53,895 nt of DNA, from positions 1-53,895 of IMG/VR virus record IMGVR_UViG_3300020472_000035; one strand, 5' to 3'. This document shows, one piece after another, positions 16,370 through 48,673 of the stretch. This DNA comes from a virus. Taxonomy: Duplodnaviria; Caudoviricetes. Under the pieces are notes generated by a model. The model had not been told where the DNA came from. It did no database searches and worked only from the letters and a program-made list of their open reading frames with translations. The translations under genes and the position numbers were made by a program. How positions within the stretch are numbered: the first letter of the stretch is position 1; every line of letters starts with the position of its first letter.

Positions 16370-16377
16370 TATTTATG
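16370..16377 (-). promoter_or_regulatory. T4-type late promoter CATAAATA overlapping the gp7 stop codon
   Basis: Minus strand CCATAAATAAC, whose TAA is the gp7 stop; 20 nt upstream of the next ATG. Confidence 0.75.
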
Positions 16378-19300
16378 GTGTTTCGGGGTCAACTGGTTCC
16401 TCTCCGTATAGACTTAAGTCAGGAGCAGTCCAGTCATCTGGTACGCTAGTCTCAACTGAGACTATAGGATTCTCATATCCACTACCTGCATTACTAATTT
16501 CAACACCAGCAACACCAACCAGTGCGCGAATGTTACCATCAAATCCAGATATAGAGTCAACTCTTACTGTTGGTCTAGTTGTATAACCAGATCCACCAGA
16601 GGTCACCTGAACCTTCTCAATGGTTCCAGATGTTAGTTGAGCAGAACCTTTAGCATCTTGTCCGAATACAGATCCAAGATAGTCAAAGGTAATCAAAGAG
16701 TTAGAAGATTCAATAACAGCAACTTCACGATCTTCAGTCTCTCCTTGGATGTCAATAAAGTCACCAACTTCAATTGGTGGTACAACTTCTGCAGCGTCAA
16801 CGTCTGCCTCAGAACCAACGTAGGAGAATGCAACGAATGTTGATCCAACACGAGGAATCTCAGAGAAGATTATTCTAGAACCAACCAATTCAAAACCAAC
16901 GCCTGGTTCCTGAATAACACCATTCAGTGAGCATATGATATTATTTTCTGGAAGGATTGTAGAAGATTGAACACCATCAGTCAGTGTCAATGAATAGAAC
17001 ACGTCATCACGTCTCAAGTTGAATGACTGACGTAAGGAGTCGAACTCGAAGGATATATCATCCAACTGTCTCAACTTACCTACGTAGAATCCTGTGAACG
17101 ATGCACCTAGATCTGGTGCTTCAGTGAACTGAATATTATCTGAGAACGCTGTATATGCGTTTGCAGATCCAGGAGGTTGTAGAACACCATTAATAAAGAG
17201 AAGCATGTGTCCTGCTGGATCTGGGAAGTACTTCGTGCCATTCTCAATGGTTAACTTGAAGGTAGTTTGAGAACCATCAAATCCTCTGAATGCACGTTCA
17301 ACACGTCCTTTAAGATCAACCTTAGAAAGAATTGAACCCTTGTAATTATCCTTACTCATAATGCCATCTCTACCACTGAATGTTCCACGAACATCACTTA
17401 GATAGAAACGCTTATGTAAACCTGCAGTCTGTATAGCTTGAACCAAACCAGTTGCAGCACCAGTGACAACGACTCTAGTAACTACGTTTGCGTGACCTTG
17501 TGGATTTACAGGGTCAACTCCAGTTGCAAAGTCACCAACTTGATCACCATTCTGAATATCTCCTTTAACTATATCAATGTAAACCAAGTTATTATCAATA
17601 TCAACTTCAGTAATATTACCGTAGTTATTGATATCCATGATACCGTTAGTAATCTTATTAAGTTTATTACCAACTACAAATACATTCTTGTTGTCAATGA
17701 TTGAAATACCAAGTCGATAATGACCAGTAGAGGAAATTCTATGACCAATATTAAGATCTAATCCATCATACTTAAGAACATCAATATACAATTTCGATGT
17801 TGCTGGATAAATTGTTGCTGTAGTTTCAAATGTGCCCGTTAAGGTTTCAGTATCAACAGTTAGTTTACCACCACTATTATCTGTAACAGCAGCTTCTGCT
17901 TTTAAGAATCCTGTTGGAACTGCAGTTGCTCCAGAATCATATCCCTTGAATGGAATATTATCAGCAAATTCACCAACAAGATCAGTAATCTGAATTCTAT
18001 CCTCAATAGCATTGATCTGTGCTGTTGTAGTATTTGTTGCACCAACAACGTAATCCAATACAGCAAAGGTTCCACCAGTAACTGCAACATCAAGATACTT
18101 GAAGTTTTCATCTTCAAAGAATCCATAAATGCGACCAGTAACAGTTGCGTCACCTTGTTTCTGACAAGTCTCATTCATGATAAATGGACCATCAATGATA
18201 TCAGCATCAATACGGAAGCGTTGATGCACTTCAACAATTTCACCTTCATTCATACCAATGGATTCTAGTTCACCATAAGCACCGCTTGACATACCGTATA
18301 GGTAATCAGATGCGTTAAGTCCACCTGCTATTCCAACTGGAACATCTCTAGTACCATAAGTCTTAGTTGCTAACTTAATACCATGTTGAACAATAATATC
18401 AGTATAGTAAGTGCTATTTAATAATTGGTTTCTTATAATATCAAGACTATACCTTGTTAATCTAGCAATAGAGAATGGATCATAATTATTACTTGCAGAT
18501 TCACTAAAGTATGGAACGAACCCAGATTGAGCAGATGGATTTAATAATCCACCATGTAAAGCCTGATCTATCCATATTTCTAATTGATTGATAGTATAAG
18601 TCTTAATGTTATATGCTGTATCAGCATAGAATATCTCACCAGAACCAGAAGCATAAGGATCAATTACATTCTTAGTAAGTTTTTGACCCCATCCATAAAT
18701 TCCTGATGTGCCATCACCAGTGTAATTAGTCTGTCCAGTAGCATTCTTAACTATTACCTGTTGACGAAGTTGTGAGAAACCAAAGGAACAAGTAATTGTA
18801 ATATATGCTCTATACCAACCAGAACCGTAAGGAATGATACCATGATCATTAACAGTAACACCACCTTGAGGTGTAAACAGACTACCTGTAGTTCCAGTGG
18901 TTAAATCGCAATCAAAGAATGCTTGCTGTTTAGTAGCAGTATCCTCATCAAGAGAAACCATTACACGAACATTAGAAAATTCAGCAGCTTTTAAGAATAT
19001 AGAATAAGTAAATTGCTGTGAAGGTACAGTTCCTACTTCACCTGTGTCAAACGTTTCATTCGTAGTATCAAACTTAACACTGCCAGAATCCCAAGTTTCA
19101 TAAGCATTCAGACTGTAATTTCTGAACATGTTATGCTCACCTGCGATTGCAGTAGTAACAATCTTATCAGCAGTTAAACTATTATCAGGACCAACAAGAG
19201 CATTACTTGTAATAGTTGCATTTGTAAGAGTGTTTCCACTAGTAAGATCTTCTGGATACTGATAACCAATATTATTACTAACGATTTGATCTTGAACAGT

Positions 19301-22300
19301 AGAGGTAATTAACCTTGCATTTCTGAGTATTTCAACGTTTGCTGGATGTGTATACCAATCAAATGGAGCACTTACTCCATTACTTGCAATAACTCCCGCA
19401 CCTGTAGTCTGACCTTGAACAGTATTTCCTATCGCAACAGGAAGATTATTCATATAAGGTCCAATATAAAGTCTGCTATCCTTAGCATCCCATTCAAGGA
19501 TCATAGCATAACCACCAGTAGTTGAGTCAGTAAGAATTTCACCAACAATGAAATTACCAGCTACACTAGCAAGTTGTAGAACACGTGCTTCATGCTTATG
19601 TTCTATGTCAGTTGTAATAGAGTCTTGAACCATGTTTCCAAGTAACTCATCAACAAAATCATTATAAATCCACTGACCATTACCAAATTGAGTATTAACA
19701 AGATTTGTTAACTCTTCCTTATAGTAATTTGCATTGAATAGGATATTCTTCATTCCAGATCTTGCATCATCTTTGCCTGGAGCAAAGAAGTCAATTACGA
19801 TATCTACAAGTTCATTCCAACGACCAACTACTTCATCAATATCTGTAGTAGATTCTGTATCTCTATATGCAGGAGATGAAGCACCTTGAGATTGATATCC
19901 ACCGAAAGGAATAGATTCACTACTATTATAAGCATTATTTCTAACTACTTCTGCACCAACTGTCTTCAATACGGTCATACCATAAACAGTTGCTATGACC
20001 TCATCCTCAACCTGAGTAAGAGTTCCATCAGCAGCAACGTAGTATTCAAGTGCCTTAATAGTGCTGTTATTACCACCAGTCTGTAAGTCAGAGATTATTG
20101 ATTTAACAATCAATTCTACATCTCTCTCACAAGTTAGTTGTCCACTAACACCACCTGGACTTGGGAATGTAAAGGCTTGATAGTTTGCAGAACCTGCTTG
20201 ATATGTAAATTCATTTACTATGCTAGAAGTAACATCTTGTGCAATATACTCTCTATTGAAATAGAGTCTATTACCAGCAATATGATAATCTAAACCAGTA
20301 GGTGCAATAATGTCATTAACACTGGTTATCAATGCTTCAATGTTAGTCTTAACATCTGCACAATCACCAATAACACTTATTGCGTTAGAAGCAGTACCAC
20401 CTGCCCATGCGTGAACATAGTCACCACCAGCAATGATACCCTCGATATCTGCAGAAGCAAACTGATGTAGATAATCTCCACCAGATATTACAGCACCAGC
20501 AAGAGAACTTACATAATTGTGTGTAGTAGTATCGCTAATGGCACCCTGTCCACCGTTTACATTAATTGTAATTGTTCCAGCAGCCTGATCAGCACTATCA
20601 ATATTGATTGCAGTGTCATATGCATAGTCTTCTCCAGTTCCAGTTGAAGCACCTGCTGAACGTGGATATGACTTCTGAGTTACGTTTCCATCACTGTTAA
20701 AGTCACAAGTAAAGGTTAATGAATTAGGAGCAAGTTTAATGCTAGTATTAGCAACTAATCCGTGGTTAACAGCAAGAGTTAATACCATTACACCCGTAGT
20801 TGGATTGTAAGTAGCATTAGAAACATTGTGTAAAACTTTTGGAGTAGTTCCTACAAGAACACTAATAGTCTCTGCAGTTGCTTCAGTAATCTCCATAGGA
20901 AGATTATAGAAAGGATCAGTTGTTCTTGGATAAGACTTCAGAGTCATATAGTCATCCATGAAGCATCTAAACTTCAATGAATTAGGATTAATCCTAATAG
21001 GATGACCAACCTTTAAGTTGTGGTTACCAATCCAAAGTTTTAAGTTACCTCCAGTTGGGTTATACTCAGCATTTGTCGCTGTATATTTAACTTCTGGAGT
21101 AGCACCAACGTTAACTGTAATAGTTGTTGTAGTAACAGCATCGATAGTAACTGGTTTCTGATAGAAAGGATCGGTTGCACGTGGGTATGTCTTATTAGTA
21201 GCACCAGCATTCATTTGACAATTAAATGTCAATGCATCATCTGCAATTTGAATACTATCACCAACACTAAATCCGTGACCAACAGTAATACAATTGGTTG
21301 CAGAAGCAGTCAATACAAAGTTATGAGTTGTAGTGTCTGTAACAGCACCCTGACCACCGTTAACATTAACGGTAATTGTTCCACCACCTTGGTTTACAGC
21401 AGTAATAGGTAGGAAGTTATCGTATGCATAATCAGCACCATTTGTGGTATTAGCACCAAATGATCTAGGATATGCCTTCTGAGTCTGGTTGCCATTACCG
21501 TTATAATCACAAGTAAAGACTAAAGATTCTGTTTTAATTCCAATTTGATCACCGATGACTAAAGTATGAGTTCCAATTGTAAGTGATAAATCACCTGAAG
21601 TTGGGTTATAGACTGCACCTGTGACACTAAATGTTCCTGTATTAACAGCAACAGTCAACGTCATATCTCCTGTAGAAGGAATATAAGATGCGTTATAAAC
21701 ATCGTACTGTGTAGTGCTATCATTATTTGTTACACCCCAGTCACCAACGATAAGATTTTCTGTATTATCTTGTGTTAGAGTTCCATCAACTGCTTGCTTT
21801 AAGTAGTAAATTAGACGCTCATGAACATAAACTGACTGTGGAAGTTGTAATCTAATATGTTGTATTTCATCATTCAATCCAAGATAGAATCCAGCAGCAG
21901 TAATGACATTCTTATTACCACCCTGTTCAATGTCAGTGGCAATACCATCAACAACTTGTCCTAGGTCAGTCTTACAACGTTCTGTTCCATCTGTAGAACC
22001 ACCATTTTGGTTTCTTGGCATATCCTGAGCCAAAGCAGGATACTTCTGTAGCATATCATATGCAGCTTTATCAACAATTGCTCCACGGTTCTGACGAATT
22101 AGTTCGGCAGCATCACGGAATCTGTAACGACTGAATATGTCTATTCTATCTGTATAAACTAGATCAGCACCAGGATTATCATAGGTGACCTTGAATGGAA
22201 CTTCCATATAGGAGTGGATTGTTCCACCAACATATTCATGAACAGGACCAAGATCAGTAACAGTTGCTAGATGGTCAACAGGAGTTGTTAAAGCAGCATT

Positions 22301-25300
22301 TGAAATGGTATCTGTTAAGATTGAAATTAGGTTATTTGAAGTTGTATAAACATCAGAACAACTAGTAACTTTATAATCAGACTTGGTTATGCAATTAGAA
22401 TCTGCACTAACAAACTTATGATCATGTACGTTATCTGATGGAGACTTACCAACATTAACTACAAATGTATTAGCTGATGCATTTTTAACTTCTAATACTT
22501 GCTTACTTGCAGGATCAGAAGCACGTGGATAATCATGCTGAGTAGCATGGGCATCCTTAGAACAAGTGAATCTTAGAGAGTCATCAGCGATGTAAATGGA
22601 ATCACCAGCAACATGTATTCCTCTATGAGCAGCAGATACAAATGTATGAGTATATTCACCACCAGTTCTGATACCATTAGTAAGTCCAGACTTGAATGTA
22701 TGGTGATAATTACCACCTGTGGTTACTATTGCTCTTGTAATAGAATTTACAGATGAAGATTCAAATGTATGTGTATATTGATCAGCAAATGCAGCAACAC
22801 CAACATCAACAGTAAATGTATTATTAGTTGGATTGACAACTGTTAACCATCTACCACTAGCAGGGTCGGTTGTTCTTGGATATTCGTGAATACTTGAGTA
22901 TTGGTCTTTAGCACATCTAAAGGATAGACTTTCGTTAGTAATGCGAATCTTCTCACCACTCCGAATTCCGTGGAAAATACTAATACCTTGAGCACTAGCA
23001 GAAACAAAGTTATGTGCTGAAGTATCAGTAACAGCTCCACCACCGCCATTTACATTGACTGTAATTGTGGTTGCAGTTGTTGCTCTAATCGGTAAATGAT
23101 TGTTATATGCGTAGTCAGCTCCAGAAGGAGTAGCAGCACCAGTTGCTCTAGGATAAGATTTGTTTGTAGTGTTTCCATCATTATTATAATCACAAGTAAA
23201 GATTAATGAATTAGGAGCAATTAATATCTCCTGTCCAACTGCTAAAGAGTGAGATCCAACAGTTATTTCCATATCACCTGTGACAGGATTATATGTAACT
23301 GCACTAGCTGTATGCTGAGTTGTTGGAACTGTTATAGTCATATGTCCTGTAGCTGGATCATATGCAACAGTGCTTGGAGTAAATCTGTAAGGTGCTACGC
23401 TACTTAATGTATGTGCAGGAGTAAATGAAGGTGAATAACCATCCAAAGCATTAACTGTAACAGTTGTTGCACCTACTGCATCAATAGGAATTGCTTGAGC
23501 AACAAGTGGATCTCCTTGGATAATACCATCAGTATCTGAACCTGCATAAGTATGTGTTGTTGTATTTGTTGGAGTAGTTCCTTGTAGAATATCAACTTCA
23601 AACTGAGAATCGGTTACTTTACTAATGAATAACCACTTATCGCTTGCAGGATCAGTAGCACGAGGATATGTGTGTATAGTTGCGTTCTGATCTTCTAAAC
23701 ATCTGAACTTGAGTGAATTATCTTTAATCTTAATCGGTGTACCAGAAACCATACCGTGACCAAGAGTGACAGCATTAGCAGACGCAGAAACGAAATTATG
23801 CGTTGTAGTATCTGTAATAGCACCTTGACCACCATTAACATTGACCGTAATAGTATTTGAATCAGCAGCACGAACTTGAAGCCATGTGTCATATGCATAA
23901 TCTGCTCCACTAGTTGTTGTCGCACCACTTGCTCTAGGATAAGTCTTCTGAGTTGTGTTACCGTCACTGTTATAGTCACAAGTCATTGTCAAGGAATTAG
24001 GAGCAAGTTTGATCTTATTGCCTGGAATTATTCCATGACCAACCTGAATTGCACCATCAAGTGCAGAAGTAAAGGTGTGGTTACTAATATCTGTAATAGC
24101 ACCTGCTCCACCGTTAACATTAACTTCTATAGTTGTAGCACCTACAGCAGCAATATCTAACCATGTATCATATGCATAGTCAGCACCAGTTGCAGTAGAA
24201 GCACCAGCAGAACGAGGATAAGACTTAACTGTCTGGTTATTATCGTTATTAAAGTCACAAGTGAACTTAATAGACTCAGGAGTGAATTTAATCCTATCAT
24301 TAGTTGTTAAACTATGAGACCCAATAGTTAGAACCAGAGTTCCAGCAGAAGGTGAATAAGTTGCACCACTAATGTTATATGACCCTGCATTTGCAGAAAT
24401 AGTCATTGTCATATCACCCGATGTTGGGTTATATGTTACAGCAGTAGGAGTAAATGACTCAGTAGGAATATTAACTGTCAAAGCACCTGTAACTGGATTG
24501 TAAATTGTTCCAGTTCCAGCAGTATGAGTAGCAACATTACTTCTTGGATATGTGTGCTTCTCAACAGAACCATCCATTGCACAAGTCATTATCAATGAAT
24601 CAGGAGCAATCTTGATTGTTGAATTTGCCTTGCTAACACAACCTGAAACAGCACTTACGAATGTATGTGTATCAACGTTAGTAGAAGGAATTGCATCTAG
24701 AACCTGAACATCAAAAGTATCTGTAGTAACATTAAAGATTTCAATCCACTTATTGCTAACTGGATCACTTGCACGTGGATAATCTTTTTGTGCAGCACCA
24801 CCAGAGGCACCACCAAAGTTACAACTTAGTTTTAATCCACCATCAGCAATCTTAACTTTCTCACCATTAGAGAAGTTATGACCTGCAATAGTCAATGTCA
24901 TAACACCACTTACAGGATTATATGCAACATCTGTTGGTGTATGAGTTGTAGGAGCAGGGTGACTATGTGCGTCAATAGTTAATGCTAGAGCACCAGTTGA
25001 AGGATTATAAGTTGCTGCACTTGGTGTATAAGCAACAGTTGGAGTTGCACCGACATTAATAGTTACGCTATTGTCACGTTTAACAATACCATGTGGATTA
25101 GACTTAACAAATAAATGTCCAAATTGACCTTCTACACCAGCCTTACCTACAAATACTGTAAATGTGTGATCACTAGCAGCGTTAATTTTTAACCATCTGG
25201 CAGCAAATGGATCATTAGGTCTAGGATAAGCATGTTCTGTTGAATGATTATCTTTACCACATGTAAAGGTTAATGAATAATTCTCTATTCTAATTTCATT

Positions 25301-28300
25301 AGATGTTGTTAATCCATGATTCAAAATTGTCATGGTTAACATACCAGTCACTGTATTATAAGTTGCACCTTCAACAGTCATTCTAGAAGTACTACCATTA
25401 CCCCAAATTGGTAATGCTGTATTATAGAATGGATCATCAACTCTAGGATAAGAGTGATCTGTAGAATCATTATCTTGTGAACAAGTAAATGTCAAGGCAT
25501 CCTTGAGAAGTTTCAAAGTTTCACCAGATCTGGTCATTCCACCAGGAGATGCACTTATGAATTGGTGTGTATAACTACCACCAGATGTTACTGCGTTAGA
25601 AGCAGTACCACCTGCCCAAGTATGGGTATAAGGAGCACCTGCAACAACAGCACCTTTGGCAAGTCCACCTGCCCAAGTATGAGGTGCACTGGTTCCAGAA
25701 GCAATACCAACATTAAGAGTAATTTCGTAATCAGTTACTGAATCAATATTGATTGGCTTATCATAGAATGGATCAGCACCACCTACACAGTTACCGCCTG
25801 TGCAACCAGATGCACGAGGATAAGTCTTAACTTGACCACCAGCTACCTTACCAACATTAACAGTAAGTGTTCCACCAGAAACACCTTCAACTGCTATATT
25901 AGTGTTATAGAATGGATCAGTTGATCTAGGATAAGTATGACTTGAATTATTACTATCAGCATCACAAGTGAATGATAAGGAATTCGCATCAATAGTTATC
26001 ATACTTGAAGCATGTTGAATACCATTAGTGGTTGCAGAAACAAATGTATGAGCAGTTGAGTTGCTAGATGGAACAACATCTAGAACCTGAATATTATACT
26101 GATCAGCATCAACTATTCCTACAATCGCTATCCACTTATCGCTAATTGGATCAGAAGCACGAGGATAAGAATGAAGACTGATATAATTGTCTTGAGCACA
26201 CTTGAATGTTACTGCATTATCTGCAAGTTTAACTAAATCACCAGCAGCGAATCCATGACCAGTTTTCTTAATGGTCATGATACCTGTAGAAGGTTCGTAT
26301 GTAGTTCCTGCTTCTGGAGTATGAGTTGTAGGTGCAGTTATAGTAGTAGAATTAGTTGTTAATACTAATTCTCCTGTAGAATGAGTATACGTGGCATTTG
26401 TTACATTATATTGATTAGAAGTTCCAACTTCATTTACAGCATTAGATGCGGTTCCACCATTATATGTGTGATTACCACTACCGTAAGTACAACTGAATGA
26501 CAATGCATTAGCAGGGATTTTAATCTTAGTATTTGGTGTTAAATGATTCTTAGTAACTATTCCGTTAGCTGCTGCAGAAACAAAGGTGTGTGCTTCATTA
26601 CCAATTGAAATCTGACCTTGACCACCATTAACATTAACAGTAAATGATGTGCTATCATATGCTGTAATTGGAAGCCACTTATCATATGCATAGTCAGCAC
26701 CACTTGTTGTAGCAGCACCTGATGAACGAGGATATGTATTACCTGGTGAACTTACACCAACAGCACAAGTGATCGTTCCATTAAGTTGATCAACTGCTAA
26801 TATTGGAAGAGCTGTATTAAATGCAGGGTCTGTTGCTCTTGGATATGTATGATTAGATCCATGATTATCTAAAGAACAAGTAAATGTTAATGCATCCTGT
26901 GCAATTGTTATAGTATCACTAGTTGTATAACTATGAGAACCAATATTAACTATTAAGTAACCAGTTTGTGCAACATAAGATGCAAAGTTGACATCTTCAT
27001 TAGTTCCACTAACGCTAACTGCATTAGTAACGTTTCCACCAACATAATTATGAATACCTGCACCGTATGTGCAACTGAATGTTAGAGAGTTAGCTACAAT
27101 CTTAATTGAATCTGTAGTTGTTAGACTATGTGCTCCAGTCGTAATTTTTAAATTACCAGTTGAAGGATCATAAGTAGCACCTGTTGCGGTTCTTCTACCT
27201 ACCTGCAATGTCATTACACCAGATGCAGTATCAAAGGATGCATCAGAAACGTCATAATCTACTTGAGGTGCAGCACCAACATTAACAGTGATTGTTCCTG
27301 CTGTTTGATCTACAAAACTAATTGGTATAGAACTCTCATATGCTCTATCAATTCTACGAGTTATTGAATTAGCAGTAGAAGCAGTGCAAGTATGATCTGT
27401 TGTATTTGTGGGTGTTGTTCCCATTAATACATTAACGTCAAATGTAGATGCTTGACAGTTGAATACTTCGATATACTTACCACTAATAGGGTCTGTAGAT
27501 CTTGGATATGTATGAGTTGTTATATGATTATCTTCACCACAAGTAAATGACAGTGAATTATCAGCAATCGTAATCTTATCGCCATCTTGGAATCCATGAT
27601 CACCATCAGTTTGGATGGACATTACACCTGTTGTAGAGTTATAAGAAACTCCAGTGTAGTCTACAGAATGTGTTGAAGTTATATTTCTTGGATATGTCTT
27701 ATTAGCAGTATTACCATCCATTGAACATGTAAATGTCAATGCATTATTTCCGATAATAACATCATCTCCAACTTGAAGACCGTGATTAGCACCAATGGTT
27801 AACACCATATCACCACTAGCGTTATCATATGTGGCACCAGTTACATTATGCTGAACATTAGCAGTAGTACCAACATTAACATCAAATTCTGTATGAGTTA
27901 CATTACTAATAGGAAGCCATTTATTGTAATATGGGTCTGTAATTCTTGGATAGGTATGCTCACTACCATAGTTGTCCATTGAACACTTAAAGATCAATGA
28001 ATCTCTATCAAACATAACTCTATCACCAGTATAGAATCCATGCTCAACAGTAATTGGATTTGGATCTGCAGACTTAAACTTATGCTTATAATCACCACCA
28101 CATATAATTGCATCTGCAACAGCAGAATCAAATGTATGAGTTGTTGTATTACTTGATTTACCAACGTTAATAGTAATTACACCTGACTGATGTGTAAGAC
28201 CATTAGCAACAGCACTTGAGAATGTATGAGTGTCAGTATTAGTAGAAGGAACAACATCTAGAACTTGAACATCAAAATCATTTCCACTTACATTTGATAC

Positions 28301-31300
28301 TTCTAACCATCTACTACTTGCATAATCAGTAGCTCTTGGATATGTTTTAGTTCCACCACTACCGAATGAACAAGTTAAGGATAAAGTATCATCTTGAATC
28401 ATTACTTTATCGCCATTGTTGAATGAATGACCAGCACCAATTGTGATTGTCATTACACCAGTAGCACCGCTATAAGAAGCAGCAGTAATTGTATGTCTAC
28501 TTCCTACCGAATCAATATTGACAGGCATCTCATAGAACATATCACGATGTTGCTCAAGATTACCCATATATCCAACGAATGTATGAGCACTTGTATTAGT
28601 AGAAGGAACAACATCTAAAACTTGAACATCTACACTAGTAGATTGTACATTTTGAACTGGGATCCACTTACCACTGATATAATCACCAGGTCTAGGATAA
28701 GAGTGCTGTGTAGTATGATCATCCTTAGCACAAGTCATTACAATATTATAATCAGGAATTCTAACCCGATCACCATTTTTCATTCCATGACCTGCTACGA
28801 GATCTAATGTCATGATACCTGTAGTAGGATTATATGCTCCAGTAGTTACAGTATGAAGATCAACAATAGAACGAGGATAAGAATGAACACCAGTTCCATA
28901 ACCGCAAGTAAAGAGAAGACTATTAGACTTAATTCTAATTGATGTATTTTGTCTCTCTAATCCACCTGCAGCAAATGAAACGAATGAATGAGCATCAGTA
29001 TTTGTTGAAGGAATAATTGCTAGACATTGAATATCAAATGTATTTGCAGTTACATTAGTAATTGGAATAAACTTACCGCTAATTGGGTCAGTAGAACGAG
29101 GATAAGTCTTCTGTGCAGCACCACCAGTAGCACCACCAAAGTTACAACTCATGGTTAATGCATTATCAGCAAGTCTTACCTTGTCACCCTCAGCAAATCC
29201 ATGATTAGCAAGAGTAAGAGTTACAACACCTGTATTTGGATCATAAGCAGCACTAGTAGGTGAATGAACACTTGGTGCTTGTAAATCATGATCACCAACA
29301 GTTAAAGCCATTACACCTGTGGTAGGTGTGAAGGTAGCAGCAGTTGGAGTAAGAGTAACTTTTGGAGAAATTCCTACATTAACCGTAATTGATGTATCAG
29401 TTACATGTGAAACTTCAAGTTGATTATTATGTGCTGGATCACTCTGTCTTGGATATGAGTGGGTTGTTGTATGACCATCCATATCACAACTAAAGTGAAG
29501 TGAATTATCAGAAATCTTAACTTTTTGTCCTGTCTCTATATTATGAGCATCTATTGTTAGTTCTAAATCTCCACTAATTGCACTATAATCAGCATCTCTA
29601 ACATGATATTGATCATTACCAACATTCATGGTCATTACACCTGTTGACGCAGTATAGTCAGCATTATGAACACTATGCTTACTACCTGGTTTTAGATCAT
29701 TATCACCGATATCCATCGTCAAGAAACCAGTATCAGCATCATAAGTTGCACTAGCAGCAGTATAACTTATTGCAGGTGATTTACCGACATTGACATCAAA
29801 TGTTCCTGTAGCAACGTTAGAAACTTCTAACCATCCTTGTCCTGCAGGATCCTCTGGTCTAGGATAACTCTGTGAAACTGTATTATTATCACAAGTACAT
29901 GTCATTGTGATGGAATTAGGTTCAAACTTAATCCTATCTCCATTCTTCAGACCATGACCGACTGTTAAACAGTTAGATAAAGATGATGAGTAAGTATGAG
30001 CATAAGCATGACTAATAGCACCAGCACCACCATTAACATTAACTGAAATAGTTGTAGCAGTTACATCTTGAATTCTTAGATACTTGTCATATGCATAATC
30101 TTCTCCATTTGGTGTATTAGCACCTGCTGCTCTAGGATATGCACCAGTACCAACTCCACTATTATCACAACTAAATGTAATTCCACCAGTAGCGATCTTA
30201 ACGCTATCATCAGTTGTTAAAGTATGAGCACCAATAGTTAGAACCATTACACCAGTTGCATGGTCATAAGTGGCACCAGTAACGCTGACCTGACTTGTAG
30301 GAACAGTTATAGTTAATACACCTGTTGTAGCAGTATATGCAGCATTAGTTGCTGTAATATGGTGAGGACCATTTAAATTATGATTTGCAGCAGTGATTAA
30401 CATATCACCCATTGTTGGATGGTATGAAATATCAGTTGGACTATATTTCTCTAAAACTTGAGTTGTATAACCATCATTAGTAATAGAAGTATCATAATGC
30501 TGAATTAATCCATGATCACCTTGTATATCCCAAGGAGTATTAGTAACAATATACTTGATGATTCTATCTAAAACTTCAAATGTGTAGACTGTCATAGAGA
30601 CATCATCTTCAACATTCAAGATAGTAACAGGATTAGTAGTTCTATCAACATAGTATGAAGAAGCCTTCCACATATGATGATTACTACCATTACGTAAATC
30701 TTCTACAAGAGAATCAATAACATCTCTTACATCATCCTCACAATCAGACTCAGATCCAATGATAGTATGAGCAGGGTAAACCTGCTTCATGATATAAACA
30801 GATTCCTGAGCAAGTAATTCTTTGTTTAATATTAATAAATCTGCAGCATTCTTATATCTGTGAATCTTACCATTAAATCCTGTAGGAGCACCAGCGATAT
30901 TAGATTTATAAGTTACACTTAAAGCATCGTTGTTAACGAATTCACCCTTACCAAAACTCTCTCCACCAGACCAATCTTCAGTAACTGTTGCAGCATCTGC
31001 ACCATCAAAGTGGACTAGTAATTTTGTATCAGTATCTCCTTGCCAAATACCATTAGGAGAAGTAAATGGAACTGTAGCATAACGTGCAAGTCTAGAATAT
31101 CTAAATTCATCAATCCATCCAGCAAGACTATTAAGTCCCTGCCAATCAGAACCTATTCTAATTGGTTTGTTTGCTGTATAGTTACCACTATCTGTTCCAG
31201 TTCCAATCTCTGTTCCATTAGAAACGATCTTAACATCAGTACCAGTTCTTTGGATTACTAAATGATACCAAACATTATTGTTTAAAACATTTGCTCCAGT

Positions 31301-34300
31301 ATTTGCTATATCAGAACCATTAACATTTAAACGAACTTGTGCTGCCTCTAAGTAAATTCTAGGAGCAACTTCTGTCGCAGATTCCCTCATATCAACTAGA
31401 GTTATAGTTCCAGTTAATGAAGCAGCATCTAAACGAACCCAGAATTCAATAGTGTAATCACCTGTACCAGGAGCAAATTCAGAAGACTTAGGAATCTGAA
31501 CATAATCATTTGTTGCAGCATCAAGAAGCAATGAAGCAGTTCCAAACTTCTTCTGTGCAGTATCTAATTGTGCACTATTAGAGAAGTTAATTACATGATA
31601 ATCTGCACCATGTCTTAATGATCTACCAATCTTACCAAGATATATTGTATTACCTGAATAGTTAAATCCAATAACTTCAGCCTTAGTATCTCTAGTTCTA
31701 ATAATTTGACCAGTTCCGAATAATCCAGAACCTTGCTTATCTTTAAAGGTTAATTTTCTTGCTTTTCCATCTTCACCAGTAACAAAATCACCAATATTAT
31801 TTCCGTAAGAGATCTTATAATTCCTAATCATCTCTCCGACAACCAATGTTCCATTGGCATTATCGTAAGGAATTACTATATTGCTAACATATTCATTAGC
31901 AGGGAATTGTGAATCAATATCTGTTGTAAAGGTTTCATAATCAACAACACTAATTGTAGACTTAGAAATGTCATCTAAAACTATGTTTGGATATGTAATT
32001 GATGTAACTCTGTTGAATAATAGACCAAAGAATGATGAACCTTCAGATATATTGACCTGACCAATAAACTCATTGGTTGTAGGATCTTGATATGTTGCTG
32101 TAGCAGTAAGTCTTGCAACAACACCAGACTGAGCACCCATAATAACATCATCAAGAGCAAGATCAAATAGTCCAGGAGTGGACTGATATGTTCCAGTAGT
32201 CTTACTTAAAGTTAATTTGTTATTAACAGCAATACTAGTTGAATAAACAGGACCATCTTCTGCCTGTGTAAATGCAGTAGTACCAAGTTGTCCTCTAGTT
32301 ACTTCTAATGTCCAAGAATCATTATTGACAGTTATTTGAGTAACAGTTACAATTTCAGAACCAATCTGATAATTAGATGATACAACAAACGTTCCTGCAG
32401 CAGGAGGAGTATCAGGATCAGTTGAAATTTGCTTAGGTGCTACAACTTCAATAGCAGCAGTAGAAGGACCAACTCCGTAACGAAGTTGAGCAAGTGGATC
32501 TTCTGCACCACCTGCTAAGTTAATTGCTTCAACCTTAGCAGTCTGACCATCATGGTTACTAACTGTCTCACCGAATACAAATAAACCAAGATTTGAAATA
32601 TCTGAAATAGAAACGTAATTAGCAACAAATCCAGTAGCACTATTGTTTACCAATTCATTTGCTTGGAATGCAGTTCCTTCTGTAAAATAACCTTGAACAT
32701 CATCTCCAACAATTGCTGTGACAGTAAATCTGGTTAGAGATTCTTGTCCAACCATCGTATTTCCTCTAATTGGGAAAATACCACTAATATTAGTAAATAC
32801 TACTTGCTTTATATCAATTTGCTGTATATCAACATTGACGTATTTGACACTTGCAGGTGGTTGAGGTGGTTGACTGAATACAATAGAATCACCTAAAATT
32901 GTAAATGATGTCCCTGGAGTTTGAGCAACACCATTCAAAATGATCATTAACTGATTAGCATTAGCAACTACATTATCACCATTAACTTGTAGTGGGAATT
33001 GAGTCTTAACACCATCAAATTGATTAGAAATATCATCTAATCTCTGTACAACAGAAGTCAAAATGTTCTCAGAAGACGTTAGTCTCTTCTGACGGAACAG
33101 AACTTCTGAATTATTAAATTCTGAATAAACTGGTTCAACTAGGGAGAAACTTTGTATATTAGGAACAATTGCTTCTCTTGCAAGTTCAACAGCTTTTGTT
33201 ATCTGGAAATCAGTTTCCTTATTAGGAATTTGACCATAATCCGATAGATTTAACTCACCAAATACCTTAAATGATGCAGGGTGAACATTCTTAAGTAAAA
33301 TCTCTTTCCATTCACCAATAGAAACAGCAGACTTAACAGCATAGGAGAAGTCCTGATAATAGTAAGAGTCTTGAATCTTCTGAATAATTTCAGAAGGTTT
33401 ACCAATGTCATCAATGAATTGACCAGTAGTTTTGGTAATAGAACCAATTTCTAGAACACCACGAGCAACCTTTAAATCACTAATGATACCTGAAGACTTA
33501 GAAATAACACCTGTAATTCTTTGATTCTCTGAAAAATCTCCAGTGTAATCAACAATCTTAATAACTCTAGGTCCAACCTGCCAACCAGAGTTAGTTGAAA
33601 CATATCCACTAGCAGTAGCAGCATCTAATGAATCACCTTGATATACAAGTTCACCTTCAAGGAAAGTAGATGTTACAACGTTCGCAGTAGCAGCACCACC
33701 AAATGATTCGGTTAAAACAGTCTGACGACCTTCACCAGCGTTAACGAAAGTAATAGCATCACCTAAAGCAGCGTTAGAAGCAGTAATAGCAAGTTTTAAC
33801 TGGTTAGTTTCTAGTGAATTTGCAGCACCAGCAATAGCATAATAAGTGTTAGATGCATTTAATCTACCAATAGCACCAGCAGCAAGTGGGAAATCTGCCC
33901 CATCTCCAGTATCAGTAACTGTTAATGTAACTTCAGCACCATTCTGAATACCATGTGGGAAAGCAAACTGTAGTAATCCTAAGTCAAGGTTAACAACATA
34001 GTTAAAGGATGATCTTAAAGATACAACAGGAGCAGAAGAGTAACCTGAACCTGGATCTTTAACGATAATATCATCTAGACGACCGTTCTTAATAGTTGCT
34101 TCAGCAGTTGCATTAAATCCACCACCACCTGTAATAACAACAGTAGGTGATTGTGAATATCCAGAACCTGGGTCAGTAATTGTAATACTGTCTAGGATAC
34201 TTGTAGAAGTTAACTGAGCATTAATTGGGAACGAAATCTCAGGACGTAAAGTATAGTCATGAGGATAATCATAACCAAAGTTATTATTCTTAAGTTTCTT

Positions 34301-37300
34301 AATCTTACCAACCTTAGTTCCTCTGGTAAAGATTGAAGCACCTGTTCCAACAGGAGGAATAACAACTGTTAAATCTACACCAGAACCAGTTAATCCAGCA
34401 CCAAGAATACCTGAAATTGATTCAACATCAATTGTAGCAGTAGTATATCCTTTACCTGGAGAGGTAACTACAACTTCTTGAATCTGACCTGGAATTGTTA
34501 CACCATCATCATCAGTTCCATCAGCAACAGTGATTGAAACAAATCCACCTTCACCATCACCACCAATAGGAACACTATTATAAACACCTACTGCATATTC
34601 AGTACCTGGTTCATTGATTTGAACTCTTTCTATCTGTCTTGATGACTGAATTGTAGTAACAACAGGTAATCTAGTGTAGAAACCACCTGGATTAACAATA
34701 CGAATATCATTAATAGATCCAACGGCTTTTAGAGAACTAGTGCTATATGTTGTGTTAATTATATCAGCATTACCTTCTGGTTCATTAGCAAGTCTAAACT
34801 TGATAGTATCAGCACCACGAGTAATTGTTGCACCAGATATAGAATGAATCGTAAATTGACCTTTATAAGGTGAATCCGTTACATCTAAGTAACTAGAAGG
34901 AATAACTGGAGATGTTGCTGCATCAGGTCTAGATGGGTCAAAGTAATAAGAAATATTTGTAACAATATCATCATCAACTTTTAATTTAACTGTAGGAGTA
35001 GGAACACCTTGACCAGTTATACCTGGAGTTCCAACTCTTTCGATTGAGTTGAATGAATATTCTAGTTTGTATAGATTATCTTTAGAGAATGATAGGTTAC
35101 CACCAGCCATAGAAGAATGACTGACATCAAAGAGATATTGATGTCCATAATACATCTTCAAGACAGGAGATTTAACGTATATACTGACACTACTACCACT
35201 AGGTGCAGGAGAAGTAAGAGCAACCTGATTTAATTTGTAAGTAAATTCAACAGGACTTACAACACTATGAATTGGGAACGCACCATCATATTCATCATAA
35301 ACTACAGGACCAGAACCTGGGTCATAAGTTTGTGATGGGTTACCATCAACATTAATTACCTCACCTTCAGTAAGATAATGACTACTTCCAGTAATTACAT
35401 AAACTTCATCACTATTACCAACAGCAGTTACTTGTAGAGTCTTTGTGAGTGTTGCAACTAAAGTAATCTTAAGAACACCTGTTAAATTAGTAATTTGAGC
35501 AGTAGTATACTCAGAATTATAGGATATGTCACCAGAGTTAATATTGATAACAGAACCAACAATAAATGGTGAACCACCAGAAACTTCATCAATTCTTATA
35601 GAATAGTCATCATCACTATAAGGTTTCAACTTACATAGATCATCAAGGTTATTTGTTCCACCTTCAGGATGATCATAGGTGTTTAGATCAATATCAAATG
35701 TACCTGGTGTAGTATTATTAACTTGTGAGAATGTAAAGACTAATTCGTTAATATCTGCAGGAATCGGTCCAACAATACCGTAACTACTTTGCTCATTAAA
35801 TTGCTCAGTAAGTAGTTTACCAGTATTCAGATCATTAGACCAAGGATTATTATTAACAGCAAGGTAAATCTTCTTATTAACAGTATCTTGTCTAATAATG
35901 TATCCACTATTAATAAAGACATCTGAATCATTATTAAGGACTAATTTCGCACCTGTAGTAAAGACGAATTGCTGATTAAGAGTTAACTCCTGTATATTGT
36001 CTATCTTAACAGTAGGTGTAACTTTAAAGAAATACCTATCCTTAACAACAGCAGTAACTTTTAACTTTTGAGAACCTGGAGAAGGAACAGTAGCAGTTCT
36101 AGAACTCCAAACATCTTGAAGGTAATTTAATGACTCAGAATCTTGAGTCATTGAAGTATCAGCATCATCAAAGTCTAAATTCTGGAATCCAGCTTCTGCT
36201 AGAGCAAATCCAGTATTATTAATAGTTAATTCATTACCTGTTTGAATTGCAATCGCAGTTCTAGTAAATCCTAATTGAGTATTAGTTTGAGTAGTCTGAG
36301 TACCAATTCTTGTAGCATCAGCATTCTTATCAACCTTTAGACCCCAACCAGTGTAATCAATGTAATCATACTTGTTAGTATATGTGCTAAACCAAGCAGT
36401 ATCAACCCAAATATTACTCTCACCAAATCCACCAGCAACAGGATAATTAGTAACATCACCAGGAACTGTTGGAGTAACAGCTCTATTTCTTAAACGTAAG
36501 TTATCAACCCAATATTGACCCTGCTCATTAGAACGCCAATTATCTAATGTTCCACTTCTACCAGGAATATTACCAATGTATAGATCCTTATTACCAAAGG
36601 CAGTATTATCGATAGTTCCTTGAAGAACTTGTATACCATTAACATATGCTGTAAATTGTCCTCCTTCTTTCTTAAGTCCAATGAATTGCCAAGTATTATC
36701 AGCAAACATTGTAGTAACTGTAGACTGAAGAGCACCTGATGCAGAGTTAAGTGCAGTTCCACTTGCAGTAACAACTAATTGTAATTCTCCACTAGCAATA
36801 TCATAATACAACCATAGACCACCTGTGCTAACAGTTGCATCACCAATTGCTATTAATGTTTGTTGTGTCTGGTTATGAGTTTGTGTATTACTATTAGCAG
36901 TATCCTTATACAACATGAACTCAACAGTCCAGTCACTAGCCATCTTAGTTCCTAGATCTGCTCCAGCAAGTTTAATAACTGCATTTTCCCATGTAGTAGG
37001 AGTAACAGTATCCTTACCTAATAGTTTTGCAAATCCGTTTGTAGAATCAAATTTAAGTGCATCACCTTCACCTATAAAGGTTGGAGTGTAATGACCTGTG
37101 GTATCTGTAGTCTCACCATTAGTGAATTCAAGAAGAAGTTCATTTCTGTTCCAAGATGTTTGTCCATATACATGGAGATCACCAGAACTATCAGGATATA
37201 GACCATAAGCAGTAATACCTTCAACATTATTAACGTTAAAGTTATTATTAGTCTGATTCTTAATTACACCGTTATATCCGATTTTAACTGTATCTACAGT

Positions 37301-40300
37301 TTTCTCACCAGTTGCGTTTAATGACTTATTAACTGCAATGTTAAGATCACCAAAGATATCAATATGAGATCTAGCAGCAACATAAGAAGTGTATCCACCA
37401 GCAACAGCATAACGATAATTCCAAAGAATTTCACCAGAAGTGTTTAATTTACCAACCCAGAATCCATCTTTTGTGGTATTATCTGCTTTAAGTCTTGTTG
37501 AAGCAGTAATATAAAGTTCGTTAAATTCATCAACACTAAGACTTGTATCCATGAATGAATATAACGCATTATATAATTGCTTATTCCACTCAAGGGTAAT
37601 TGCACTAGTACCAAGTTGTGCTTTACCAATACCTGTATCAATCGATGCTCCATTTGGAGTACTAGCAATTTCAAATGTGTAGTAAATATCGGTTCCGTTA
37701 ACAAGTAAATCTGTAATTTTTTCAGATACATTAGTAGAAGTAATCTTTCTCTTTACAGCAAAGTTACCAACTGTGTCTACAACAGCAATATAAGCATCAT
37801 ATGGATTACCAGAGTTAGTATTTGTATAACCACCTATAGCGAATCTAGTATCAGAATACTTAGCAATAGCACTAACATTATCAGAACGAGTAGAACCAGA
37901 AATACCAGCATATCCTTTCTGATATTGTAGAGTTGCACTTAATCCGTTATCTGCCTGTGTATACTTACAAAGGATAACATCAGGGTTATATGCTTCTAGA
38001 ATGTTTGAATTTGGTCTATTATGACCAACAGCATAGATGTCATTACCATCAACAAGTATTTTCTCAAGTTCTACTTCTTGTTGACCAGTGGTGCTCTTGA
38101 TAGTCTTTTCCCAATCTTTAACACCAGTAGCAGATAATTTAGAAACAAATCCAATAGTATATCCAAAGGAATCCTTGGTTTTACCACAAATAAAGACTTC
38201 TTTAGCAGCGTTTACATAAACATCATTAATTTTCACATAATTCTCATTTTCAATCTTAGAAACATAATAATCTGCTTTCTTATAGATTTGAGGGTGTGAT
38301 AAGATAACACGTGGATTTGTAGTATAATCTTGTCCAGAGTTAAGGATTTTAACTTCTGAAATAGATCCAACAGTAGATACAACCGCTTGTAATGTAGAAC
38401 CGCTTCCATCTCCATCAATAATCATTGTTGGAGGAATTTCACTATTATATCCAGATCCTGATTGATTAACAATAATTTCTTCAACACCTTTGATTTGTTT
38501 AACAACAAATGTCTTATTGGTGTTGTTCATAATAGGTGTATAAGACACCACAACCTGATCATCAGTAACTAGATTATGAGGTAAAGCAGTCGTTAATACA
38601 CCATAATTAACACCACCTACGTTTTCAAAGCTGTAATTATTAACTGTTTCACCTTTAATATGTGAAACACGAGCAGAAACACCAGTACCATCAGTACCAG
38701 TATTATCAAAATCTAGACGGTCATTAACCTGATAAGATGTACCTGGGTTTTCAACTGTAAATCCAGTTACAGAAGCATCCTCAAATTTAGTAATAGTTTC
38801 AACTTCAATATCAACTTTAGAGTCAAACTTAACTTTAGGGAAGTAATCAAAGAGTTGTAGAGGTGATTCCTCAAAGATTTGATCTGGATCATCAGTCTCA
38901 TCTTGAGAGATAACAGCGTCCCTATTTTCGTCTTCTACCTCGAATAGGAGTAATTCACCATCTTCAGTAGTTAGAGCGTTTGTAGAGGCATTTGGTGCCC
39001 TCTCAACGTCAATATCAACGTTCTCATATGGATCACGATATCTAACAACACCAGTAGGAATATTCTGCTGAACAGCACTAGTGCTTAAGTTCCATGTATC
39101 AACAACTGAGTTGAAACTTGGTCCTAAAACATATGGGAATTCTGGGTTTCCTTGCTCAGTAGTATCAATAGTAACGAAATAACAATATCTACCAGTTGGA
39201 AACTCAGGTGTCTTACAAAAACGACCATTGTACTGGTCAAGATCACCTAAACCAAACACATAGTCATAGTCTTCAACAAACTTACCAGCAGGTTCTTCAG
39301 TCAATAAAGGACCAGCAGTTCTAACTGGATATGGATTAGTAATTACATCATATACAAGTTCTGCCTTTAACCTGTATGAAGTGTTTAATCTGTTTATTGC
39401 AGAAACTTGATCGGTAGGATCACTATAACCATAAGGACCATAAATTGGGTTACCATCAAATGCCCATCCAACTATAGGTGAGTGATCTAACTGTTCTGCC
39501 TGTTCAATTACATTTCCTATAGTAGGTTCTTGTAAATTATCACCAAGAACATACCTTAATCTTTGTGGGTTTGATAAATGAGCATATTCACCACCATATT
39601 GGTTATTATATCCTTCAAATACTCCACCTTTCGCATCATCTAACGTAGTAGTCTCTTGAAGGTTGTATGTCCACTGGAATACATTTGCTGCAAATAATGC
39701 ATCTTGACCAACTGAAGTCAAGTTAATAAGTGTAGTTCCTTGAATATATCCAATACCTCTGTTAAGAATCTCAACACTAGTAACTCTTCCTGCGTTTTCA
39801 CCATCAACATCAATACTTGCTCTAGCAACAGCACCGAAACCATCACCTTGAATACTAATTTCAGGAGCAGTAGTATATCCAGATCCAGCAGAAATGATAG
39901 CAATTGATATAATACGACCATTCTGTACAATTGCTTGAGCAACAGCACCTGATCCAGAACTTAACTTAACATCTGGTTTAGATGTATATGATGCACCACC
40001 ACTAGTTACTGAAATAGATTGAATAGGACCACGAACGTTTGCAGTAGCAGTTGCACCAGTTCCACCACCTCCAACAATGGTTATTTGAGGTTGTGAGGTG
40101 TATCCAGTTCCCCCAGAATTGATTAGAATACGTGAAACAATACCTTTGGTTATAATGGCAGTAGCAGCAGCTCCAGACCCGCCACCGCCGACTATAGAGA
40201 CCAATGGAGACGATGTATAACCAGATCCACCAGTAAGAACTTCAACTTCACTTAGAGATCCGTTAACAATTACAGATGCAGCAGCACCACTACCAGATCC

Positions 40301-43768: not shown

Positions 43769-43773
43769 CTACT

Positions 43774-48430: not shown

Positions 48431-48673
48431 TTATATATCGAAAAAGTCAAGCATTATCTCTCTATGTTTCCAAGTGAGACCGCTTGTAGACCCTTTACAA
48501 GCATTTATACACGTCTCATCACTCAATTCGTTACAAACTAGACCAGCAAGGTCATGAGGGCACGCTTCTCGTCCTGTAGCCCAGTACAATTGCCCATCTA
48601 ACCATCTCGCTTCACAACAAGGGCATTCCTTTATACTAAGACTCGTGGATCGCCGCCGACGGGGGTTACTCAT
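48431..48673 (-). CDS. Cys-rich hypothetical protein, possibly metal-binding
   Basis: CPCC..RWLDGQLYWATG...DLAGLVCN...CINACKG. Confidence 0.75.
   Translation of the reverse strand: MSNPRRRRSTSLSIKECPCCEARWLDGQLYWATGREACPHDLAGLVCNELSDETCINACKGSTSGLTWKHREIMLDFFDI

Follow-up and report, generated by a model that had tools for sequence, protein, structure and literature searches.

Helical modules of predicted phycobiliprotein-like fold carry trees of beta domains in a common loop of a giant cyanophage baseplate protein

In 2005, Sullivan and colleagues read the large homologues of the baseplate gene gp7 in the cyanophages P-SSM2 and P-SSM4 as gp7 fused to fibre-like parts (PMC1079782); the passages of that paper on these genes describe neither modules nor their fold nor graft sites. 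A different way of enlarging a virion protein is found in the endosialidases, where a small beta-barrel is spliced into a loop of another domain. Among the proteins of the cyanobacterial light-harvesting antenna, phycobiliprotein beta subunits have a loop between helices G and H that bears the Cys-155 bilin site, and their two bilin sites lie on different faces of the subunit with the chromophore centres about 35 A apart, while the phycobiliprotein domain of the core-membrane linker ApcE has a loop insertion between helices B and E. Here we describe a giant protein that touches on all of these systems. It is encoded at the gp7 position in a 53,895-nucleotide stretch of DNA (the window), which makes up the whole of IMG/VR record IMGVR_UViG_3300020472_000035 and has an estimated completeness of 30%. 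The protein contains three helical modules, of which two carry trees of 25 and 4 small beta domains in the same loop and the third carries none.

The giant protein is a 9131-amino-acid open reading frame (ORF) on the minus strand (16373-43768), a single frame that spans all modules and trees and in which residue p starts at nucleotide 43768-3(p-1). Inside it lie three paralogous helical modules of about 160-180 amino acids each (Table 1), each with a cysteine in the N part (C1) and, in modules 1 and 2, a second one at the start of the short C part (C2). A blastp search with residues 7800-8010 against the whole protein returned residues 4294-4414 (E 1.7e-11) and 7257-7314 (E 1.3e-5). In a MAFFT alignment of the window's three copies with the three of a relative (L001) the N parts align, and so do the short C parts, along '(T/G)DC.DV..(I)..L...'. 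The hidden Markov models (HMMs) of the modules were seeded with the window's own copies, so their E-values are circular. A previous inspection of the DNA, the sequence-only reading, had proposed a trunk of three such modules with 25, 4 and 0 domains, and this is borne out by the motif and HMM counts, by blastp and by hhalign. Its positions translate correctly to module starts at nucleotides 30859 (module 1) and 22123 (module 2) and to 19742-20290 for module 3, and the flanks it quoted are present as given (YDTSITND and CSDVYTTSNN around the first tree, DWGVTNND and CADVKTNIEA around the second, TDIDEVVGRW in module 3). The shared motif that it wrote as AA.LI..N....C..D... does occur in all three modules; the fixed spacing does not hold, as the dots between the letters N and C have to be taken as a variable gap.

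Table 1. Positions of the giant ORF, its helical modules, their conserved cysteines and the inserted trees in the window
Feature	Residues	Nucleotides	Strand	Evidence or remark
Giant ORF, virion structural / gp7-position baseplate protein		16373..43768	-	phrog_701 end-to-end match; gene order
Module 1, N part (helices equivalent to phycobiliprotein A, B, E, F', G)	4304-4432	30473..30859	-	blastp, alignment, hhalign
Module 1, Cys C1	4343	30740-30742		in 'SDCEDD'
Tree 1, 25 'YPR' beta domains, partly nested	4433-7132	22373..30472	-	25 core-HMM matches
Module 1, C part (closing helix)	7133-7166	22271..22372	-	alignment; hhalign to empty site 2
Module 1, Cys C2	7137	22358-22360		in 'TSCSDV', start of closing helix
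Module 2, N part, ends 'GDWGVTNND'	7216-7350	21719..22123	-	blastp, alignment, hhalign; predicted local distance difference test (pLDDT) 80-92
Module 2, Cys C1	7265	21974-21976		in 'ERCKTD'
Tree 2, 4 'YPR' beta domains	about 7351-7800	20369..21718	-	4 core-HMM matches
Module 2, C part (closing helix from 'GDC')	7801-7826	20291..20368	-	model helix 614-632
Module 2, Cys C2	7803	20360-20362		
Module 3, uninterrupted 'empty site'	7827-8009	19742..20290	-	blastp, alignment, hhalign, superposition
Module 3, C1 only	7880	20129-20131		in 'TCERD'; Ile at C2 position

The sequence-only reading had also suggested deleting the trees and aligning what is left, and such deletions exist in nature. The relatives comprised a sample of 79 IMG/VR loci and, for the second site, an alignment of 29 non-redundant sequences over modules 2-3 (28 orthologues and the window). 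Between two near-invariant flanks, 'GDWGITNDx' and 'GxCANVKxAIDTL', the site-2 insert measures 0 amino acids in 19 of the 29 and 2 amino acids in one; it otherwise measures 94 amino acids in two, about 200-210 in three, 420 in the window and about 615 in three. These naturally empty modules (19 of the 28 orthologues) align with module 3: in a profile-profile comparison of orthologue sets with hhalign, empty site 2 and site 3 were matched at 98.0% probability (E 1.8e-13) and were colinear through the loop and the last helix. The N part of site 1 was matched to site 3 at 98.5% and to empty site 2 at 98.0%, with 132 as the last template column; the C part of site 1 was matched to empty site 2 at 70% (E 4e-5), with 135 as the first column, and more weakly to site 3 (36%, E 3.8e-4), in the register expected. 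Because the N part ends at column 132 and the C part starts at column 135, the inserts of modules 1 and 2 lie in the same loop within 2-3 residues, just as had been supposed from the window. Module 3 is colinear with empty site 2 and carries no inserted domain core in any of the 81 proteins of the census described below, and can thus be regarded as the empty site. The outcome that would have spoken against the sequence-only reading, modules 1 and 2 failing without their inserts to align with or fold like module 3, was not seen.

The census covered 121 giant proteins, the window's own and 120 listed homologues of at least 5022 residues. A strict parse assigned 81 of them to the three-module type; among the remaining 40 are members of another protein family built of the same parts, and proteins whose parse was missed by the short C-part HMM. 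At 9131 amino acids, as against at most 7974 among the listed homologues, the window protein is the longest of the sample. The sequence-only reading had called for tree sizes to be compared across relatives, and among the 81 proteins they run from 1 to 25 domains at site 1 and from 0 to 6 at site 2, site 3 being empty in 81 of 81. In the G-H loop of site 1, which is never empty, 4 domains are the commonest number (49 proteins), the others being 1 domain (11 proteins), 2 (3), 3 (2), 8 (1), 11 (4), 15 (2), 16 (3), 17 (3), 18 (1), 21 (1) and 25, the maximum, in the window alone. Site 2, the window included, has 0 domains in 66 proteins, 1 in four, 2 in six, 4 in two and 6 in three; an IMG/VR locus cut at its 5' end (L005) has 7. 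With N and C for the module parts and domain numbers in brackets, the closest relative among the 120 (P0002, 69% identity) reads N[15]C N[4]C N C, and of the named isolates P-SSM4 reads N[11]CNCNC and Syn30 N[8]CNCNC, while P-SSM7 has 5+2 and 2 domains. The P-SSM4 homologue (gp7/orf080) thus shares with the window protein its gene position, its family (phrog_701) and the three modules, which there carry 11, 0 and 0 domains. The gp7 of P-SSM2 (L209:15005-30589, 5195 amino acids) is likewise a T4-like cyanophage gp7 fusion and has 9 YPR cores; unlike the window protein, it has no helical module, and the whole 252-kb genome of P-SSM2 gave no match to the module profile.

A second graft site was found in 16 of the 81 proteins, in which 4-6 domains follow the first two helices of module 1 and precede its helix beginning at C1. 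In P-SSM7 (L207, gp7-like, residues 4491-5149) this graft reads '..YPELVILG', then 5 domains, then '..GVNCEDD'; the same B-E loop of module 1 is used in L040, L041, L066, L072, L079, L006 and L074, and is not used in the window. This site goes beyond the sequence-only reading, as does the phycobiliprotein-like fold treated below, and it corresponds in position to the insertion in the phycobiliprotein domain of ApcE. The helical module itself is widespread, with 847 cluster representatives at E<=1e-3. Up to 33 matched module stretches were seen in one protein of 6382 amino acids, and the giant proteins P0122, P0123 and P0124 are rich in modules. In a second family (L008, L050, L053 and similar loci) the arrangement is 'NNNNNN[30]CCN', a run of modules being followed by about 30 YPR domains.

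The inserts consist of small beta domains with a 'YPR' motif. There are 29 such motifs, 25 in residues 4544-7080 and 4 in residues 7433-7701, and a 34-column core HMM found 25 and 4 cores, all within the two inserts; the window's six frames hold no others. Nesting was examined with one HMM for the first half of the domain, ending in YPR, and one for the second half ('DP...VNVG'); the order of halves in the window is N()()()()(()()()(())(())(()())()()()(()()())()()()CN()()()()CNC, with one closing half undetected, and from this order several domains of tree 1 have one to three whole domains inserted directly behind their YPR. For tree 2 the sequence-only reading had given the nesting 26[27,28[29]], which fits the order of the four 'Y.P.TG..LT' hairpins and four 'H.F.S' closing strands as read from the sequence, three of these strands following one another just ahead of 'GDC'. 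The repeat copies of tree 1 are old, with 60-89% DNA identity to the reference copy of their repeat family; recent tandem duplication as the origin of tree 1 was ruled out on the same ground. A modelled YPR domain (model residues 141-253, within a larger model) superposes on the FCCH region of UBA1 (Z 7.9, rmsd (root-mean-square deviation) 2.5, 76 aligned) and on the inserted barrel of the phi92 endosialidase (4hiz_A 255-340; Z 7.8, 83 aligned), the latter in a range where only a common arrangement may be meant, and the Pfam family E1_FCCH (PF16190) scores 25.4 bits for the YPR domain, below the cut-off of 29.5. The endosialidases share the splicing of a small barrel into a loop, and their barrel resembles the YPR domain; they differ in having a single insertion, as against a recursive tree of up to 25, and in that the receiving domain is a propeller, not a globin-type bundle. 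Each YPR domain of the window (20369-30472) keeps one Cys ('L.F.C'), a 'GHG' and the His of the closing strand ('H.F.S'), and most copies have a further His two residues ahead of YPR ('H.YPR'); this conserved Cys/His set looks like a possible metal site. The motif 'NC(I/V)T' occurs in many of the closing strands.

Two models were calculated with AlphaFold2, one of window residues 7190-8010 from 29 aligned sequences (pLDDT 67.3) and one of the three modules of L001 with its single inserted domain from 18 sequences (pLDDT 74.2). Every module of both models is predicted to have the same helices in the same order. Two long paired helices come first and a third long one starts near C1; after a short helix and a small hairpin there is a further long helix, from which a loop leads to the closing helix that begins at C2. 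The block pLDDT is 80-95. When Foldseek was run against the PDB, the best 50 rows were phycobiliproteins except for four of low probability (BIRC6 and three syNOS), with TMt values of 0.52-0.68, and with VIA-align module 2 of L001 superposed on phycoerythrin beta (7ap5_BBB) with Z 18.4, rmsd 2.6 and 159 of 184 residues. A search of 48,161 representative chains that was independent of Foldseek placed members of the phycobiliprotein family at ranks 1-8 (from Z 17.7, on module 2 of L001, down to 12.8), followed by photocobilin (12.3), the stressosome RsbR globin (11.9), sensor globins (9-11.7) and haemoglobins (7-8). On module 2 of the window, taken across its 450-residue tree, phycobiliprotein beta chains (chain 1..172-184) superpose on model residues 14..633 with Z 15-16.9 and rmsd 2.4-2.8 A, and since that range includes both the N part and the helix after the tree, the two halves are predicted to close into one phycobiliprotein fold; the modelling that had been proposed for the modules supports a single domain with an insert. 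Module 3 alone matches the beta chain 7lj0_B (Z 15.7, rmsd 2.4, model 635..807 against chain 33..177). On these models the module has a phycobiliprotein-like (globin-type) fold, which is new here. The place of the N-terminal X-Y hairpin is less regular, some superpositions starting at chain residue 1 and others at 30-33. A helix of the preceding module fills this place in many superpositions (e.g. model 113..807 on chain 5..177), and neighbouring modules may pack like the two subunits of a phycobiliprotein monomer. Structural relatives in BFVD are unnamed or are cyanophage 'structural', 'tail' or 'fibre' proteins, and look-ups of the empty module 2 and of window module 3 in the ESM Atlas gave no usable match.

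Single modules stay below threshold in their sequence similarity to phycobiliproteins, and significance is reached only when the module family is taken as a whole. The record of the window itself contains a sub-threshold match to the phycobiliprotein family PF00502 at 21959-22114, in the N part of module 2 (E 2.8e-4, 16.1 bits). When 17 empty site-2 modules were searched, 15 reached E<=10, the best E being 0.0029 and the best-scoring listed row 17.3 bits (E 0.0049), and among the 120 giant homologues listed there are 12 with a precomputed PF00502 match. A profile of the same 17 modules had phycocyanin alpha as its top match in the PDB (E 0.013), with C1 on Cys-84 in 'KCARD'. Weak phmmer matches of residues 7190-8010 in the PDB comprised two phycocyanin alpha chains (E 0.1 and 0.41) and a heat-labile enterotoxin IIB chain (E 0.016), the last of which was taken as chance. 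A phycocyanin-alpha HMM made from 43 cyanobacterial sequences was run on 271 module-bearing proteins: E was below 1e-3 for 115 of them and below 1e-10 for 25 (best 1e-20), as against none below 1e-3 among the same 271 sequences reversed. The register was constant across the HMMER and hhalign alignments, C1 falling on Cys-84 ('KCARD', 'ACLRD') and the Asp at +3 on Asp-87; the equivalents of 'CxRD' in the window are CEDD, CKTD and CERD, with the Arg kept in module 3 only. In the C part, 'tgdC' falls on the 'GDC' of phycocyanin beta in a low-probability hhalign alignment (E 0.0072), and a forced global alignment sets the phage 'PWGITVDAGDC' on 'PNGIT--PGDC' of phycocyanin beta. Given the constant register, the 'GDC' alignment, the family-wide HMM signal and the precomputed PF00502 matches, we accept the link and infer that the modules and the phycobiliproteins are likely to be of common descent. 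Modules of the S-PM2 tail fiber protein p091 (L210:13485-23504) and of P-HM2 (L208:1306-14679, 33380-44425) have a near-canonical Cys-84 motif, with 'KCRRDIGYF', 'KCKRDLGYF' and 'AKCARD' in the S-PM2 fibre and P-HM2 gp7, and stay below PF00502 as single segments.

Compared with the beta subunits of C-phycocyanin and phycoerythrin, the phage module agrees along about 145-160 residues in its predicted fold (Z 17.7-18.4, rmsd 2.5-2.6 A), in a Cys at the Cys-84 position with an Asp at +3, and, as far as the low-probability and forced alignments show, in a second Cys after 'GIT..GD' in the G-H loop. It differs in standing in tandem inside a 9131-residue virion protein, in scoring below the family cut-off, in having no known chromophore and no clearly present X-Y hairpin, in a G-H loop that holds up to 25 foreign domains, and in that module 3 is without the second Cys. 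Like the phage protein, ApcE has a phycobiliprotein-type domain within a large multidomain protein, and its structures were among the matches (4xxi_A, Z 14.2; ApcE chains, Z 12.8-13.4). Unlike it, ApcE is a host antenna protein with one bilin, whose loop insert is short and unstructured and carries no arrays of folded domains.

Several results weigh against the phycobiliprotein reading. The Foldseek E-values are only about 1e-2, the confidence of the models is moderate (pLDDT 67.3 and 74.2; predicted TM-score 0.48 and 0.50) with parts of tree 2 below 50, the alignment behind the window model consists mostly of insert-free orthologues and may help the program to close the fold, and the fold of module 1 is predicted from its helix pattern and from homology. 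PF00502 reaches 17.6 bits (E 0.004) on the N part of window module 2 against a gathering cut-off of 22.2, gives no match on window modules 1 and 3, and comes to E<=1 in only 2 of 12 single modules tried, in none of 5 S-PM2 modules and in 1 of 9 single modules of S-PM2 and P-HM2. A profile made from 33 copies of site 3 found no phycobiliprotein in the PDB, its sole match being a lipoate-protein ligase (E 0.22), and the aggregated HMM scores have large bias terms, e.g. 89.2 for P0124. With phycocyanin profiles of 43 (alpha) and 45 (beta) cyanobacterial sequences as the counterpart, hhalign gave 39.6% and 24.5% for site 2 and at most 5.6% for sites 1 and 3, while phycocyanin alpha against beta, as a yardstick, gave 98.1%; with probabilities so low, the argument for homology rests on the consistent register, the fold and the family-wide scores. 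All single-module scores being under family thresholds, and helical folds reaching high Z easily, it could be held that the modules are a globin-type helical bundle that resembles phycobiliproteins without shared descent. Convergence of this kind is unlikely in our view, since the phycobiliprotein family takes ranks 1-8 and its top member stands more than 5 Z units above the first non-bilin globin, the same register returns in every comparison with 'KC.RD' and 'GIT..GDC' in common, the family-wide signal vanishes in reversed sequences while PF00502 is precomputed in homologues, and phycobiliproteins are known only from the hosts of these phages and a few algal lineages. A different objection would be that no domain is split at all, the helix after each tree being merely a linker from the beta array to the next module. 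From the window alone, with a C part of only about 30 amino acids, this could be maintained; it is scarcely credible beside the 19 of 28 orthologues in which 0 amino acids separate the parts, leaving one continuous module that is colinear with module 3 (98%) and with whole phycobiliprotein chains, and beside the window model, which closes the fold across the tree.

The two cysteines have been given two further interpretations. In the sequence-only reading the two Cys could staple the helices on either side of the insert, as a disulfide between C1 and C2 would. Of the distinct copies, 27 of 28 at site 1 and 33 of 35 at site 2 have the pair, and two of the three that do not are truncated. At site 3, with 39 distinct copies, 26 have no Cys at these positions, 12 have only C1 and 1 has the pair. 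That there are exactly two Cys per module, co-conserved at sites 1 and 2, that the protein is extracellular in oxidising sea water and that module 2 of P-SSM4 loses both together would all suit a staple. The pair is kept equally well where site 2 is empty and is therefore not tied to the insert, C1 occurs without C2 in L079 as well as in the 12 copies of site 3, and the aligned positions, Cys-84 in the middle of helix E and Cys-155 in the G-H loop, would be set apart by the phycobiliprotein superposition (rmsd 2.4-2.8 A) and the geometry of phycocyanin. A staple thus appears unlikely, and this part of the earlier reading is not upheld. The other interpretation is that both Cys are working chromophore attachment sites, so that modules of the cyanomyovirus baseplate and fibres, derived from phycobiliproteins, would still bind bilins at the equivalents of Cys-84 and Cys-155 and the virion itself could be light-sensitive. 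It draws on the alignment of C1 with Cys-84 and of the Asp three residues later with that of 'CxRD', on that of C2 with the beta-153/155 Cys in 'GIT..GDC', the graft lying in the G-H loop 2-3 residues ahead of it, on the retention of both Cys with or without an insert, on the empty module 2 having exactly these two Cys, and on the S-PM2 and P-HM2 modules that read 'KCRRDIGYF' and 'AKCARD'. Cyanomyoviruses encode bilin reductases and a homologue of the T-type lyase (CpeT), and T-type lyases act on Cys-beta155, according to the relevant passages of two papers (PMC2327270, PMC10452541). Furthermore, the module profile matches P-HM1 (4 places), P-HM2 (4) and S-PM2 (9) and matches neither P-SSM2 nor P-SSP7; Liu et al. 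2019 report dark adsorption for P-SSM2 and P-SSP7 and none for P-HM1 and P-HM2, and, citing Jia et al. 2010, describe the adsorption of S-PM2 as light-dependent and photosynthesis-independent (PMC6628666). The parallel in these five phages is an anecdote, confounded by kinship: P-HM1 and P-HM2 belong to one species, and P-SSP7 is a podovirus. Other results weigh against bilin binding: our search of full-text literature found no report of pigmented cyanophage particles; the copies of site 3 mostly have neither Cys, P-SSM4 keeps 1 of 4, the Arg of 'CxRD' is lost in window modules 1 and 2, and a large tree two residues ahead of C2 might block a lyase. CpeT does not go with the Cys in four isolates either, P-SSM4 having CpeT with 1 of 4 Cys and P-SSM7 no CpeT with 4 of 4; CpeT (PF06206) is present in Syn30 and S-MbCM6 too. 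Bilin binding by the modules is a reading of low probability. A general loss of the Cys in Prochlorococcus phages was considered and dropped, as P-SSM7 keeps 4 of 4. The P-SSM4 record (L204, 16642-17064) has a CpeT-family ORF of 148 amino acids (37.4 bits); a 2010 review, in the passage concerned, gives cpeT as absent from P-SSM2 and P-SSM4.

The giant ORF lies between a gp6-like gene (43774-45798) on one side and a gp9-like connector (15124-16350) on the other, the order on the minus strand being gp25-like, gp6-like, giant ORF, gp9-like connector, wedge subunit, gp8-like and VrlC-like protein. This order of baseplate genes is common to the window, P-SSM4, P-SSM7 and S-MbCM6, and in P-SSM4 the homologue is annotated gp7 (7312 amino acids). 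The baseplate cluster is T4-type, the flanks of the window match Synechococcus phages, and the virus is a T4-like cyanomyovirus of which the window is a fragment. The cyanophage family phrog_701 ('virion structural protein') matches 23 of 23 tiles of the protein, many at E = 0, its profile having only about 130 columns at the position of tree 1 and none for tree 2. On a 600-residue tile the N-terminal baseplate wedge family PF23786 scores 20.6 bits, below its cut-off of 27; as most gp7-type homologues have that family as a precomputed match, and as the giant protein is matched by phrog_2885 'baseplate wedge subunit' (E 1e-96), an N-terminal relationship to gp7-type wedge proteins is likely. 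Elsewhere in the protein a YHYH domain (PF14240, E 8e-32) was seen in the N-terminal part at about 39160-39675 (residues ~1365-1536), and a Laminin_G_3 / concanavalin-like domain (E 5e-19) at about 31090-31510 (residues ~4087-4226), directly ahead of module 1. Many short repeats with the signature 'G(S/G)GY(T/S)..P.V.I' occupy about 40000-43000 (residues ~300-1250) as well as residues 3050-3200; they are similar to portions of several PHROGs for phage wedge, head-closure and fibre proteins. A gene similar to DNA endonuclease V (denV; 48666-49262, minus strand) is situated upstream of the baseplate genes, as it is in P-SSM2.

Taken together, the account that we consider probable is that phycobiliprotein-like trunk modules carry YPR trees in a common G-H loop, with tree size varying among lineages. 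The modules, which make up the C-terminal third of the gp7-position protein, most probably derive from a captured host phycobiliprotein of the beta type that was then triplicated, and the three in tandem would act as a compact trunk. The loop ahead of the last helix, equivalent to the G-H loop, is the graft point in modules 1 and 2, from '..WG(I/V)T..' to 'G.C..V', and the grafts are small beta-barrel YPR domains themselves inserted in one another. The root domain meets one end of the loop with its first hairpin and the other with its last strand; for this reason the helical fold would close at any tree size, so that lineages could gain or lose domains without disturbing the trunk. As for function, we infer, with about even chances of being right, a modular display scaffold that presents many putative surface-binding beta-barrels at the periphery of the baseplate for host adsorption.

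A search of the full-text literature, by which subscription journals are mostly not covered, found no paper on phycobiliprotein-like modules in cyanophage virion proteins, and the passages found on cyanophage, baseplate and phycobiliprotein concern host antennae or pigment genes. If the modules did bind bilins, the virion would have its own photoreceptor, which would explain the photosynthesis-independent, light-dependent adsorption of S-PM2, P-HM1 and P-HM2; the bilin synthesis and lyase genes of the phages would have a target in the phage particle itself, and the beta-domain trees two residues before C2 would be moving or binding parts controlled by a chromophore domain. Because the Cys are kept and, in a small sample, the presence of modules parallels light-dependent adsorption, the old question of light sensing at cyanophage attachment becomes testable with named residues in phages that can be cultured. 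The architecture itself shows a route by recursion to a protein of more than 9000 residues, in which a helical domain offers one permissive loop and the inserted domains offer loops of their own, and in which the array can vary from 1 to 25 domains between relatives with the trunk untouched. It could serve as a design principle for loop-grafted display, and it gives an alignable coordinate system in which the baseplate proteins of the most abundant marine cyanophages, hypervariable as they are, can be compared. In this architecture a host antenna protein appears to have been turned into a part of the virion.

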